From Escherichia coli 042 (GTDB lineage: Bacteria; Pseudomonadota; Gammaproteobacteria; Enterobacterales; Enterobacteriaceae), in assembly GCF_000027125.1 (NCBI RefSeq), contig NC_017626.1: DNA of 64,000 bases; one strand, written 5' to 3'. The translations under genes were made by a program, and so were the position numbers. Of this stretch, positions 1-56,874 are shown piece after piece. How positions within the stretch are numbered: position 1 is the first letter of the stretch; the number at the start of each line of letters is the position of its first letter. The notes under the pieces were generated by a model that searched no databases, was not told where the DNA came from, and saw nothing but the letters and a program-made list of their open reading frames with translations.

Positions 1-1608
1 CGCTTCTACTTTTTGTTCTGCCAGCATACGGGCTTTTACGTCCTGCTCGGCATAGCTCATTGAGTCTTTAATCATCGAGGCGATTTCGCTGTCGGTCAGA
101 CCGTAGGACGGTTTGACCTGAATAGATGCCTCAACGCCGGTGGATTTCTCCATCGCCGTCACGCTCAAAAGACCGTCGGCATCGACCTGGAACGTCACGC
201 GAATATGCGCGCCGCCAGCCGGTAGCGCCGGAATACCACGCAGCGCAAAACGCGCCAGCGAGCGGCAGTCCTGCACCAGTTCGCGCTCACCCTGCATTAC
301 ATGGATAGACATCGCCGTCTGACCATCTTTAAAGGTGGTGAAATCCTGAGCGCGCGCCACCGGAATAGTGGTATTACGCGGAATCACTTTCTCCACCAGG
401 CCGCCCATCGTTTCGAGGCCCAGCGACAGCGGGATCACATCCAGCAACAGCATTTCGCTGTCCGGCTTGTTACCCACCAGAATATCCGCCTGAATCGCCG
501 CGCCAATAGCGACGACTTTATCCGGGTCGATAGAAGTCAGCGGTGGACGACCGAAAAATTCGCCTACTCGTTCACGCACCAGCGGCACGCGAGTAGAACC
601 GCCAACCATCACCACTTCCATCACTTCATCAGCCTCAACGCCAGCGTCTTTCAGCACACGACGACAAGCCAGTAAGGTTCGTTTTACCAGTGGCGCGATC
701 AGTTCGTTGAATTGTTCACGGCTGATTTCGCCCTGCCAGCCCGCAACGTTAACGGTCACGGAGTCCGCATCGCTCAGCGCGATTTTGGCCGCAATGGCAG
801 CATCCAGCAGTTCACGCTGAACGCGGTTATCGCTACGATCAGGAATGCCCGCCTGCTCGCGAATGTAATCCGCCAGCAGATGGTCGAAATCATCGCCGCC
901 GAGCGCGGAATCACCGCCGGTCGCCAGCACTTCGAACACGCCGCGACTTAAGCGCAGAATGGAAATATCAAACGTCCCGCCACCGAGGTCATAAACGGCG
1001 ATCACGCCTTCCTGACCGGAATCCAGCCCGTAGGCGATAGCCGCAGCGGTCGGTTCGTTAAGTAAGCGCAGGACGTGAAGGCCCGCCAGACGCGCCGCGT
1101 CTTTGGTGCCCTGACGCTGGGCATCGTCAAAGTACGCCGGAACGGTGATAACTACACCATCCAGCTCGCCTGCCAGGGCTTCAGTTGCCCGCGCCGCCAG
1201 TGCTTTGAGGATGTCCGCAGAAACGCGCACCGGGTTCAGCAGCCCCGCCGCCGTTTCAATCATCGGCAGGCCGTTTTCGCTGGCCTGGAATTGATAAGGC
1301 AGATGCGGATAGCGTTGCTGGATATCAGCCAGCGAGCGCCCCATCAGGCGTTTAACAGAACTAATGGTGTTGGCGGTGTCAAGCGCTGCGTTAGTACGCG
1401 CGTCATAACCCACCGAATGCCCTTGCTGTTGATAGTGAACAACAGACGGCAGCAGGTGACGGCCTTCATGGTCGGCTAACGTTTCGGCCTGACCGCTGCG
1501 CACTGTCGCCACCAGCGAGTTGGTTGTGCCCAGGTCAATACCGGCCGCCAGACGACGCTGATGCGGCGCAGCACTCAAACCAGGTTCACTAATTTGTAAT
1601 AAGGCCAT
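1..1608 (-). CDS. hscA: Fe-S cluster assembly chaperone HscA (Hsp70 family), C-terminal end truncated by window edge
   Basis: Reverse-strand translation from the ATG at 1608-1606 begins [10 protein letters not shown], a recognised HscA N-terminus; the frame runs off the window start. Sits immediately downstream of hscB as in the isc operon. Confidence 0.9.
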
Positions 1609-4204: not shown

Positions 4205-4315
4205 TGCTCTATAAACTCCGTACATCACTCAATGCAAGGAACCAGGCTACCGGCTGGATGTACGACCGTGTTTACGGAGCGCGATACGCCCCGGCCTGAT
4301 TCTGAATTCTTTTTA

Positions 4316-33646: not shown

Positions 33647-33830
33647 AACAAAGCCGGGAATTACCCGGCTTTGTTATGGAATAAGGCGGTGCCTAACTCG
33701 ACGTTTCGCCCGATGGTTGATATAGCTACGCTGATATCAGAAGTTGGACGGCAGGCACCTTGTTGTGCGTCATTCGAATTTTATGTAGCACGTCCCGAAG
33801 GGGCTGACATAAGTCGGTGAATGAGCCACT
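33647..33830 (-). ncRNA. glmY: Small RNA GlmY
   Basis: Reverse strand reads AGTGGCTCATTCACCGACTTATGTCAGCCCCTTCGGGACGTGCTACATAAAATTCGAATGACGCACAACAAGGTGCC... and ends in the terminator AAAGCCGGGTAATTCCCGGCTTTGTTGT, matching recalled GlmY sequence; length 184 nt; no ORF. Confidence 0.85.
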
Positions 33831-42133: not shown

Positions 42134-42430
<297 letters not shown>

Positions 42431-42624
42431 TATTCTGCTCCTGGAGTAGACTATTGTTGACTTTATAGTGTGAGCCTTCAGGTTCTTATATTTATTTTAG
42501 TGATGTTATCATAAATATCAATTATTTCATGAATGATAACACTATCTGTATAAGCACTTATTTATAATTATTAAAGGCGCGCCTGGCTGGTTAACCTGAC
42601 GCGCCTTAAGTACGTTTCCTTATG

Positions 42625-42705
42625 TTATAAGAACAGAAGGATCAGCTGTAAAACAGCAATGATGATTTTGATGACCCGTTTAATCAGGTATCGGCAATCA
42701 GTCAT
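42625..42705 (-). CDS. shoB: Type I toxin small hydrophobic peptide ShoB (26 aa)
   Basis: Not in the ORF track (too short). Reverse-strand ATG at 42705-42703 encodes MTDCRYLIKRVIKIIIAVLQLILLFL followed by TAA; matches the recalled ShoB sequence; located between yfhL and acpS. Confidence 0.85.
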   Translation of the reverse strand: MTDCRYLIKRVIKIIIAVLQLILLFL

Positions 42706-42869
42706 TCGTTTTTCCTTAAACAAGGAATGCAGCCGTTCAGATTAGCCCTTACATCTCCCCAAAACTGAACGTGCGAGTTATTGAGGGTGCATGCTGCACT
42801 CCACACCAGAGCTTTGACGACACCACTCGTTTCAATGGGGGAATTCTGTGGCATGGTATAAAGCACAGC

Positions 42870-42948
42870 ATAATCGCCAATAACGAAGCCAATTTTAATG
42901 TACTTCCGAATTGGCGGTCACGTTAATCTTTCCATCAATATTGTTTTC
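42870..42948 (+). ncRNA. ohsC: Candidate OhsC antitoxin sRNA (approximate coordinates)
   Basis: Inferred: an extended -10-like TGgTATAAA at 42853-42861 would start a plus-strand transcript divergent from shoB, and a small hairpin plus T-tract (CAATATTGTTTTCTT) lies near 42930-42948. Coordinates rest on partial recall of the shoB-ohsC locus and are not verified. Confidence 0.3.
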
Positions 42949-43065
42949 TTCGTAAAGGCTCGAGTTTTTATGCTAAAGATTACAAGTTGCTTGTAAAAGA
43001 TAACCGCCCTGATCCATAATCGCTCTTGTTGAGGGTGCGTGCTGCACAAAATTAAAGTTAAAAAG

Positions 43066-43105
43066 TAAAACCCCCGTTCCTTACCAGTTCGGGGGTTTTA
43101 CTTTA
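43066..43105. terminator. Bidirectional rho-independent terminator downstream of acpS
   Basis: AAAACCCCCGTTCCTTACCAGTTCGGGGGTTTT, a GC-rich stem flanked by A-tract and T-tract on both sides, lies 20 bp past the acpS stop. Confidence 0.7.
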
Positions 43106-43124
43106 TAAAGAGAACGGTATTATT

Positions 43125-43505
43125 TTAACTTTCAATAATTACCGTGGCACAAGCATAGTGGCGTTCATCTGCCAGCGTTACATGCATATTTACAACGCCG
43201 AGCTTTTCCGCCAGTTTTAATGCCTCGCCCCACAGTCGCAGCCGTGGCTTACCAAGCTCATCGTTAAATACTTCAAACTGATTAAACGCCAGACCATTGC
43301 GGATCCCGGTGCCAAACGCTTTTGCTGCGGCTTCTTTTACGGCAAAGCGTTTCGCCAGAAAACGCACCGGCTGGTGGTGCGTTTTCCAGATTGCCCATTC
43401 GTTATCGTTTAATACGCGGCGTGCCAGGCGCTCACCGGATCGGGCGATCACCGCTTCAATGCGAGCGATCTCCACAATATCCGTACCTAAACCTAATATT
43501 GCCAT
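43125..43505 (-). CDS. acpS: Holo-[acyl-carrier-protein] synthase
   Basis: 126-aa [23 protein letters not shown]; start overlaps the pdxJ stop (TAATGG). Confidence 0.95.
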
Positions 43506-44987: not shown

Positions 44988-46600
<1,613 letters not shown>

Positions 46601-46842
46601 TCAGCACACGAAACAGACCTGATATACATGGCTCTGCTAACTGCTTCGCTGCAGTTTCAGTTTACCGGTATATGGGGACCAACGCTGTTTCGTGTGCCGT
46701 GGCAACCTGGAGGTGCCAACCTTAAACTTCGGGGGAATATTCTATACACAACGACGGGGGATGTCGTTAGCCACGGGAGATTTATCTCATAAATAATTCA
46801 CGTTGTCGCCATAACGGCGACAACGTGAACGAAGATGGGCTA

Positions 46843-47832: not shown

Positions 47833-49632
<1,800 letters not shown>

Positions 49633-49829
49633 AAAGTATGATTATTGTGCCTTAATGCCCGGTTAACCAGGCTTTTAGAAGTCGCTGTTCTGAGCTTAAC
49701 GTCTGTATTAATAGAAACGCCGCATTCTACACTACAACATTGAGGCGAGGAAATGTTCATACCGTATGGATTGTGGTATCTGGAAACGTCCTCGCATTTG
49801 TTATGCAAAATGCAACAAAGCCAGTGAAA

Positions 49830-50309
49830 TCACTGGCTCGCGTCTTCCGAAGATGTTTCAAATCGCACAAGGCCAGGCGGCAATGCCACGCTTAAGATGA
49901 TCGGTTGCCATTCAGACCGGGCAGCAAACTTTCGAGAGCCGCCACGTGCAATCAGGAATCCACCAACGCCACCGAGAATCGCACCGCATAATGCTGCAAT
50001 ATCTGAAGCAAAGAGTAGCTGAAATAGTGAAGCGATGAGGAATAGTCCCACCAACGGCGACATATAAACCAGTAATGCGGAGCTAAGCAGGCTGCCTTCG
50101 GCGATCCCCAATTCCACTTTTTGCCCCGGCACTAACGGTTCATCACAGGGTACGACAATGGTATGCGTGGTTTGCGGGCCAAGTTTATTCAACACGCGGC
50201 TACCGCAACCGGCGCGTGAAGCGCAGCTGCTGCATGAGGCTTTAACATCACAACTAACCAGCGCCTGCCCGTTTTCCCAGGAGATGACGGTAGCCCACTC
50301 TTTGATCAT
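49830..50309 (-). CDS. rseC: Sigma-E regulatory protein RseC
   Basis: 159 aa; operon position after rseB; hydrophobic C-terminal half. Confidence 0.9.
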   Translation of the reverse strand: MIKEWATVISWENGQALVSCDVKASCSSCASRAGCGSRVLNKLGPQTTHTIVVPCDEPLVPGQKVELGIAEGSLLSSALLVYMSPLVGLFLIASLFQLLFASDIAALCGAILGGVGGFLIARGGSRKFAARSEWQPIILSVALPPGLVRFETSSEDASQ

Positions 50310-51262
50310 TGCGCTGCCCCGAACTTAATATTCTCGGCAATGCGTTTCGCCGTTTGCGGCGGCAGTTCACCGACAATGGTGATTTCGGCGTTATCACGTA
50401 CGCTTGTACTGACGGTTCTGCGTCCGGTGCGCAACATCTGATCGGTGCTCGATGGCGTAGCGCGGTTAACGTTTACCGAAAAGCTGAATAATCCGTCGGA
50501 ATAGAGACGTGATTCGATAGGCATGTTGTCCATCGTCGGTAGCGGACGTCGACTACTGGAAACTTCGCTAAAACCCTGTGGCAACCAGGTTGGCGTCCAG
50601 CTGAATTTAGCTTTTTCACCTACAGGAACAGAAAGCAACGGCGGCAAATTTGCCTTCGCCAACGTCTGCATACTGCTGCTGATATCCTGATTGACATTAA
50701 AAGCAATCACGCGAAATTGTTCCAGCGTTTCACCATCGCGATCAAGGAGATCAACCCGCATCGGTAATTTCGATTCGGTGTCCATCCACACGATGTAGCT
50801 GTAGCGTGTACCATCTCGGGCAACCACACGAATGACTTCGCAAAGACGATCAGCAATACGCGTGCGCCCGACGGAGATAAAGTCGTAGTAAGGAGAAAGG
50901 CGTTTGAAATCGGTATAGATGAGCGATGGTAGAGAATCAACAATGTAATCGCCATTAAGCGTGAACGGTTCAAGTCCCGGTTCAAAATAGCTGATTTCAT
51001 TGCCGCGCTGTACCACTTCCCGGCGCGGGCCATCCATTTGCAACAATTGTGCAAGAGGACGGTTATCGAGGCGTGCATGTCGATAACGCAGAGACTCAAC
51101 ACCCTGTTTATTGATGCTGATGAATGACAGCTCGTAATTCAGTGACTGACTGGCCAGGTTCATCTGCTGTAATAACGCCCCGGACGCGGGAGTGGCCGAG
51201 GCGTTAGCAGAGAATAACAGGCTACCTGTCACTAATGACATGGCAAACCAAAGTTGCTTCAT
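50306..51262 (-). CDS. rseB: Sigma-E regulatory protein RseB (periplasmic)
   Basis: 318 aa with signal peptide MKQLWFAMSLVTGSLLFSANASA; stop overlaps the rseC start. Confidence 0.93.
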   Translation of the reverse strand: MKQLWFAMSLVTGSLLFSANASATPASGALLQQMNLASQSLNYELSFISINKQGVESLRYRHARLDNRPLAQLLQMDGPRREVVQRGNEISYFEPGLEPFTLNGDYIVDSLPSLIYTDFKRLSPYYDFISVGRTRIADRLCEVIRVVARDGTRYSYIVWMDTESKLPMRVDLLDRDGETLEQFRVIAFNVNQDISSSMQTLAKANLPPLLSVPVGEKAKFSWTPTWLPQGFSEVSSSRRPLPTMDNMPIESRLYSDGLFSFSVNVNRATPSSTDQMLRTGRRTVSTSVRDNAEITIVGELPPQTAKRIAENIKFGAAQ

Positions 51263-56790: not shown

Positions 56791-56874
56791 GCCTGATGCG
56801 CTACGCTTATCAGGCCTACATGGCTCATGCAATATATTGAATTTGCACGATCTTGTAGGCCGGATAAGGCGTTC
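56791..56874. repeat. BIME whose second REP unit is split by the IS insertion
   Basis: GCCTGATGCGCTACGCTTATCAGGCCTACA ... ATATTGAATTTGCA ... TGTAGGCCGGATAAGGCGTTC; the remaining half of the REP (ACGCCGCATCCGGCATGAAC) resumes at 58311 after the IS. Confidence 0.8.

Follow-up and report, generated by a model that had tools for sequence, protein, structure and literature searches.

The interval between yfhL and acpS in the window (the whole stretch of Escherichia coli 042 DNA that was analysed, 64,000 nucleotides long) almost certainly holds the chromosomal shoB–ohsC type I toxin-antitoxin locus of E. coli in a complete and apparently functional form, in which the antitoxin RNA controls the toxin by pairing with the leader of its mRNA. 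The reading frame on the reverse strand at 42625..42705 is shoB, the gene of an E. coli membrane toxin that was known already and carries a RefSeq annotation. Published work covers the gene and its antitoxin as well as the toxicity, the transcripts and the distribution, and there is nothing new on shoB biology here. The sole new material is a joint change of the pairing seed of the antitoxin OhsC and of its target in the shoB leader, seen in roughly one third of E. coli genomes; Fozo 2008 or Fozo 2012 may already mention it. The elements of the locus are listed below.

42574..42607, reverse strand: GC-rich hairpin of the shoB intrinsic terminator (predicted fold), with the 3′ end of the transcript near 42565
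42625..42705, reverse strand: shoB coding sequence, 26 codons and TAA, encoding the hydrophobic toxin MTDCRYLIKRVIKIIIAVLQLILLFL
42702..42854, reverse strand: leader ORF of 50 codons, with its AUG at 42854..42852, its UGA at 42704..42702 and an ATGA overlap with the shoB start
42706..42885, reverse strand: shoB 5′ leader, about 180 nt, its start placed near 42885 from the position of the −10 box
42712..42717, reverse strand: shoB ribosome binding site (RBS) AAGGAA, 6 nt 5′ of the ATG, in a predicted local hairpin with UUCCUU
42781..42799, reverse strand: predicted OhsC binding site, GUGCAGCAUGCACCCUCAA in the mRNA, about 75 nt upstream of the RBS
42892..42921, reverse strand: shoB promoter, −35 GTGACC (42921..42916), 18-nt spacer, −10 TAAAAT (42897..42892)
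42991..43020, forward strand: ohsC promoter, −35 TTGTAA, 18-nt spacer, −10 CATAAT, found by consensus scan and by motif search
43028..43106, forward strand: ohsC antitoxin sRNA gene (Rfam match 43028..43104; 79 nt in the K-12 annotation)
43062..43104, unstranded: near-palindromic GC-rich hairpin AAAGUAAAACCCCCG...CGGGGGUUUUACUUU, the OhsC terminator, from the Rfam structure line

RefSeq gives the frame at 42625..42705 the product name ‘type I toxin-antitoxin system toxin ShoB’ (WP_000128776.1) and places it between yfhL and acpS. Its codons on the reverse strand, ATG ACT GAT TGC ... TTC TTA TAA, translate exactly as an earlier note on this DNA had claimed (26 codons and TAA), and the match to ShoB proposed there is complete, the peptide being 100% identical to that of K-12 (b4687; YP_002791251.1, RefSeq WP_000128776.1). 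The layout in K-12 MG1655 is the same, with shoB (b4687) on the reverse strand and ohsC (b4608) on the forward strand; the two transcripts were formerly named RyfB and RyfC, respectively. Each of the sequence-level features that define ShoB/OhsC (the peptide and where it lies, the sRNA and its complementarity to the leader, and the expression signals) was tested, and each is present in the window. No observation speaks against this identity, whereas the details of the mechanism are less certain.

The gene yfhL (forward strand) ends at 42430 and acpS occupies 43125..43505 on the reverse strand, leaving a gap of 694 bp from stop codon to stop codon (42431..43124) in which shoB lies on the strand opposite to yfhL. 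The earlier note had described this interval as a 700-bp gap free of other genes; its length and the presence of the ShoB ORF were correct, but the gap also contains the ohsC sRNA gene. The AT-richness that it had pointed out is real, with a GC content of 0.39 compared to 0.523 for the whole window. It was also right that length-filtered gene calling would miss such a gene: in the six-frame ORF list, shoB appears only when the threshold is lowered to 20 amino acids. That a reader of the raw sequence found a real 26-codon gene overlooked by this kind of ORF calling serves as a positive control for the scan. In the mechanical ORF list the frame is 32 amino acids long (42625..42723), as it begins at an upstream in-frame TTG. 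Judging by the signals around it, the true start of shoB is the ATG at 42705 and not this TTG, because AAGGAA, the RBS, precedes this ATG by 6 nt and both the RefSeq and the K-12 annotation begin the gene there.

The shoB promoter was picked up independently by the consensus scan and by the motif search. The −35 and −10 hexamers found here are those published for the shoB and ohsC promoters, and AAGGAA has been published as the shoB RBS with a conservation of 100% (PMC11264685, Table 2). Both sides of the predicted terminator stem differ from K-12 in a compensatory manner (GGCGCG/CGCGCC in the window versus GGUGCG/CGCACC). The distance from the start deduced from the promoter to the terminator would give an mRNA of about 320 nt, which bears out the minus-strand transcript of roughly 300 nt anticipated in the earlier note and agrees with the size published for full-length shoB mRNA (PMC5397157, PMC5668327); the leader length of about 180 nt fits the same published mRNA (PMC5397157). 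The reported shoB transcripts measure about 320 and about 280 nt, of which only the latter, 5′-processed one is translated (PMC5397157, PMC5668327).

The short divergent sRNA that was expected on the plus strand is ohsC. It is a full-length match to the Rfam family RF02495 (ohsC_RNA; 106.6 bits, gathering score 50), and the K-12 ncRNA b4608 (ohsC) aligns at 43028..43106. The gene is divergent from shoB, does not overlap it and begins at a distance of 323 bp from its start codon. On the other strand, the terminator hairpin of ohsC (43062..43104) is located directly downstream of acpS (20 nt from the stop at 43125), so it probably works in both directions and would also end the operon closing with acpS. 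A minus-strand OhsC-like Rfam match at 43062..43146 (35 bits, below threshold) was considered as a second sRNA and rejected as the palindromic terminator matching itself; the palindromy of the OhsC terminator has been given as the explanation of a reverse-strand match before (PMC11264685). Weak Rfam matches to Thr/His leaders, miRNAs and tmRNA were likewise discarded, as all of them are under their gathering scores and all fall on the same hairpin. Elsewhere in the window, other Rfam families score above their gathering thresholds, namely the iscRS stability element, the GlmY sRNA, the rncO leader, AsrC (the antisense RNA of rseC) and ES036/CssrF, with matches at 4206..4315, 33683..33830, 46516..46730, 49514..50345 and 56812..56854; these families are expected in this region of the E. 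coli chromosome.

Between the −35 and −10 elements of the ohsC promoter, the spacer block 43003..43009 reads AACCGCC in the window and AAGTACA in K-12, and it varies among strains. CpxR regulates shoB and ohsC through two predicted boxes located between them (PMC9600279), and only 52% of strains share with K-12 the region of the box called ‘CB2’ (PMC11264685). The block at about 43003-43009 corresponds to this CB2 region, and the control of ohsC by CpxR may differ in 042.

Nucleotides 2-20 of OhsC (43029..43047) constitute the pairing seed and are complementary to positions 42799..42781 of the shoB leader. The predicted duplex comprises 18 Watson-Crick pairs and one G·U pair, and its energy is −41.0 kcal/mol compared to −20.1 ± 2.8 kcal/mol for shuffled OhsC 5′ ends (RNAduplex). 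The G·U wobble is due to a G at 43039 (seed position 12), which replaces the A of K-12 and faces the leader U at 42791; the K-12 duplex consists of 19 perfect pairs, in agreement with the 19-nt complementarity of OhsC and the shoB leader reported earlier (PMC3919570). At the DNA level, the seed and its target are direct repeats about 250 bp apart. The G allele of the window is present in 505 of 5,426 E. coli genomes. It is also found in strains E69 and SCPM-O-B-8794 and in Escherichia sp. MOD1-EC7003, and G may be the older state of this position.

To follow variation along the locus, we compared 11 Escherichia sequences: the window, K-12, 2014C-3050, E41-1, strain 155, HS4, SCPM-O-B-8794, E69, E. 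albertii, E. whittamii and Escherichia sp. MOD1-EC7003. In the consensus fold of the 11 mRNAs, the first ~32 nt pair across a stretch to which the 5′ half of the OhsC site belongs; the 3′ half of the site is covered by an outer helix. The mean predicted probability of being unpaired in the OhsC site rises from 0.13-0.24 in the full-length mRNA to 0.32-0.44 when 30-40 nt are removed, with the transcript ends taken from the promoter and terminator positions; that of the RBS is predicted to be about 0.1 in the full-length and truncated folds alike. For shoB, a ribosome standby site has been put forward in reviews only as a possibility (PMC4147584, PMC5397157). The folds are consistent with this suggestion, and the predicted change in accessibility is modest.

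Combining these observations with published work, we propose the following model. The shoB gene would be transcribed leftwards from its σ70 promoter (GTGACC/TAAAAT) as an mRNA of about 320 nt that carries the ~180-nt leader, the ORF and the intrinsic terminator. Its product would be a single-helix hydrophobic peptide, which in published experiments depolarises the inner membrane when overproduced: as PMC8309996 and PMC5668327 relate, citing Fozo 2008, overproduction of ShoB depolarises 98% of the cells within minutes and kills them, and expression of OhsC abolishes this toxicity. The ShoB of the window is expected to be toxic as well, because it is identical to the K-12 peptide. Deletions of such loci are often without a phenotype (PMC11264685). 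The ohsC gene would be transcribed rightwards into an sRNA of about 78 nt, the first 20 nt of which would pair with the shoB leader and prevent toxin synthesis. The full-length mRNA would be translationally inert, with its first ~32 nt clamping the region of the OhsC site and the RBS held in its local hairpin. Upon the loss of about 40 nt from the 5′ end, which would move that end to a position near 42845, the upstream region would open and act as a ribosome standby or loading site, and OhsC bound there would (i) block ribosome loading and (ii) create a substrate for RNase III. By analogy, control would be of the type known from tisB/IstR-1 and zorO/OrzO.

The balance between these two consequences of binding could be different, so that OhsC would act mainly through RNase III-dependent decay of the shoB mRNA and the leader site would be a degradation tag, not a standby site. 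A putative RNase III cleavage site found in vivo within the shoB/OhsC duplex region (PMC6212723) fits such a role, as does the length of the duplex, 19-20 bp being close to the minimum for an RNase III substrate. In tisB/IstR-1 and zorO/OrzO, however, RNase III cleaves the duplex and yet the block of translation is primary (PMC4147584, PMC5668327), reviews place ShoB/OhsC under ‘inhibit protein synthesis’ (PMC4147584), and decay and a translation block are not mutually exclusive. We thus regard decay as the main mode of action as unlikely and retain the block of ribosome loading as the preferred reading.

The leader contains the 50-codon ORF 42702..42854, which raises another scheme, in which translation of this ORF drives shoB by coupling and OhsC represses by blocking the leader ORF, as Sok does via mok. 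No stop codon interrupts the frame within the leader in any of the 11 Escherichia sequences, its ATGA overlap with the shoB start is conserved, and the OhsC site lies inside it. An open frame is, however, weak evidence given so few substitutions, and the variant codons (5 synonymous versus 15 non-synonymous) are indistinguishable from those of two out-of-frame controls. Furthermore, no Shine-Dalgarno sequence is located 5′ of the AUG, the AUG is lost in strain E69 and, being nucleotides 32-34 of the mRNA, it would be absent from the active ~280-nt form, which would lack about 40 nt at the 5′ end (as deduced from PMC5397157). With no coding signature, no Shine-Dalgarno sequence and an AUG in the part probably removed by processing, the ORF was rejected as a mok-like coupling element, and coupling of this kind appears very improbable compared to the pairing of OhsC with an upstream ribosome loading site.

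The shoB frame itself presents a different picture in the same 11 sequences. Its variant codons are synonymous in eight cases and non-synonymous in three, all three being conservative replacements of I by V or of I by L, and the changes are distributed over codon positions 1, 2 and 3 as 4, 0 and 7, with none at the second position. As far as sequence comparison goes, such a pattern marks the frame as translated and subject to purifying selection. The length of the ORF is by itself uninformative, because ORFs of this size are expected by chance: 1000 shuffles of the 694-bp gap contained a mean of 3.1 ATG-initiated ORFs of at least 26 codons per shuffle, compared to five in the real gap. The hydrophobicity of the product is another matter. 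ShoB has a GRAVY of 1.59 and its 16 C-terminal residues reach 2.94 on the Kyte-Doolittle scale; among 1000 gap shuffles, just 0.2% contained such an ORF in which any 16 consecutive residues attained this value. Hydrophobicity, an RBS at ideal spacing and the substitution pattern set the shoB ORF apart from chance. We found no HMM matching the ShoB peptide in NCBIfam, and RefSeq evidently names the protein by another rule. The supposition that the ORF is a chance, untranslated feature of a non-coding RNA (the shoB transcript was first described as the sRNA RyfB) could draw on the random occurrence of such ORFs in the gap and on this NCBIfam result, but besides the codon pattern, the conserved RBS and the rarity of comparable hydrophobicity it is confronted with published translational lacZ fusions and toxicity assays (PMC5397157, PMC8309996) that effectively refute it, so that its probability is negligible.

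Compared to K-12 ShoB/OhsC, the locus in the window is alike in its peptide, its neighbours yfhL and acpS, orientation, spacing, promoters, RBS, leader and OhsC structure, and the 19-nt complementarity between seed and target is kept. It differs in the G at OhsC position 43039, in the ohsC spacer block and in the diverged 130 bp near yfhL. Among other type I systems, TisB/IstR-1 resembles it in that (i) toxin and sRNA are encoded by divergent genes without overlap, (ii) the sRNA uses its 5′ end to pair with some 20 nt within a long leader, far upstream of an RBS that is sequestered (for shoB, by prediction), and (iii) the primary transcript is inactive, the 5′-processed form is active and RNase III cleaves the duplex (PMC4147584, PMC7708055, PMC5668327). 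The TisB sequence is, however, unrelated to that of ShoB, tisB is under LexA/SOS control whereas shoB and ohsC respond to CpxR (PMC9600279), and the standby site, which for tisB is experimental, is only deduced for shoB. ZorO/OrzO of E. coli O157:H7 shares the divergent architecture, a leader of about 174-180 nt, an 18-nt seed at the sRNA 5′ end and a toxin mRNA that is activated by 5′ processing. The ZorO peptide is different and 29 amino acids long, and the copy number of zor/orz varies, often with tandem duplicates, whereas shoB/ohsC is a single-copy locus at a fixed site (PMC11264685). Hok/Sok with mok, found on plasmid R1 and in chromosomal copies, is similar in its small membrane-depolarising toxin, its inert primary transcript and the presence of an upstream frame that overlaps the toxin start. 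In contrast to OhsC, which is trans-encoded, Sok is cis-encoded and overlaps its target; and translation of mok is needed for hok, whereas the shoB leader ORF lacks a coding signature, and processing probably removes it from the active mRNA.

When 1.45 kb surrounding the ORF were used as the query, 5,425 of 5,426 complete E. coli genomes matched, in every case on the chromosome, and the gene order is that of K-12 in the 5,396 genomes in which at least 80% of the query is covered; the features annotated under the match are yfhH, yfhL, shoB, acpS and pdxJ. To look beyond the species, a codon-degenerate pattern of the first 13 ShoB codons was searched against one genome per species for about 100,000 bacterial and archaeal species. 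All of its matches fell within Escherichia, namely in two E. coli-type representatives, E. albertii, E. whittamii and Escherichia sp. MOD1-EC7003. A lack of homologous ORFs at this locus in related genomes, which the earlier note had named as grounds for refutation, is clearly not what is seen: nearly all E. coli genomes have the locus, and these relatives have the ORF. No copy of shoB was found in a phage collection. Four matches in PLSDB were examined as plasmid copies of shoB and dismissed, as the records are 1.4-4.9 Mb in size and represent chromosomes, or chromosome-sized replicons, filed as plasmids.

Conservation is uneven along the locus. The module 42560-43110 is 95.6% identical to that of K-12 strains, with changes clustered in the terminator stem and in the spacer of the ohsC promoter. 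In the 11 Escherichia sequences, 12-16% of the alignment columns vary in shoB, the leader and ohsC, and 62% vary in the stretch of about 130 bp that runs from the yfhL stop to the shoB terminator (42431..42564) and is strongly diverged from K-12; one species has a deletion within it. Because this stretch is hypervariable, most E. coli genomes are just 90-95% identical to the window over the 1.45-kb query. In E. coli EC96 (NZ_CP060748.1; locus positions 789..1597), an IS1 element stands in place of shoB with its leader and of the 5′ portion of ohsC, and only the 3′ ~97 nt of the module are left beside acpS. Rare loci without the toxin are mentioned in PMC11264685, and EC96 is an example.

Across E. 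coli, the 551-bp module falls into two groups, with 3,691 genomes that are at least 95% identical to the window and 1,734 that are 80-95% identical. The difference extends to the pairing elements. In E41-1, strain 155 and HS4, which we call class 2, the OhsC seed GUUGAGGGUGC(A/G)UG is replaced by GUUGGAAUCGUGUG and the leader target CAUGCACCCUCAA is replaced by CACUCGAUUCCAA. Both are block substitutions, and the replaced block measures 6-7 nt in the seed as well as in the target. Cognate duplexes are predicted to have energies of −41 kcal/mol in class 1, to which the window belongs with its one G·U wobble, and of −34 kcal/mol in class 2, in which the duplex contains one central U·U mismatch. 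Duplexes across classes would be weak (−21 to −27 kcal/mol). A perfect duplex is evidently not required, because the window contains the wobble and class 2 pairs contain the mismatch. As for the toxin, class 2 strains E41-1 and HS4 carry the variant I22L (WP_000128777.1), and class 2 strain 155 keeps the K-12 peptide.

We counted the alleles with queries of 32-33 nt and an exact 28-nt search word that was forced to span the variable block:

OhsC seed, K-12 type (A): 3,084 genomes
OhsC seed, window type (G): 505 genomes
OhsC seed, class 2: 1,693 genomes
Leader target, class 1: 3,635 genomes
Leader target, class 2: 1,597 genomes

The OhsC and target counts are close to each other, with 3,589 versus 3,635 genomes for class 1 and 1,693 versus 1,597 for class 2; they fit near-complete linkage of cognate alleles as read from marginal totals, which is not a genome-by-genome proof. 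In the loci where both sites could be read, they were concordant in nine of nine; the sequences used for E. albertii and E. whittamii were cut short of ohsC and were left out of the pairing comparison. In about 140 genomes, the OhsC seed is of a type outside the three that were queried. Class 2 accounts for about 31% of complete E. coli genomes, O157:H7 included, in agreement with the 33.1% of strains reported to have an alternative ohsC −35 hexamer.

The concerted change of seed and target is comparative evidence for a role of the pairing in vivo, and gene conversion between the two direct repeats could have contributed to it. We consider it an even question whether E. coli harbours two mutually incompatible classes of the module, kept by selection or gene conversion, in which each OhsC would repress only its cognate shoB. 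The 2024 conservation survey noted the variation and stated that pairing potential could not yet be assessed (PMC11264685); the joint change of seed and target addresses the question that it left open. If the two classes are indeed incompatible, a recombinant that combines a class 1 toxin leader with a class 2 antitoxin would lose repression, and the shoB–ohsC locus would illustrate, on a small natural scale, how orthogonal RNA-RNA pairs co-evolve.
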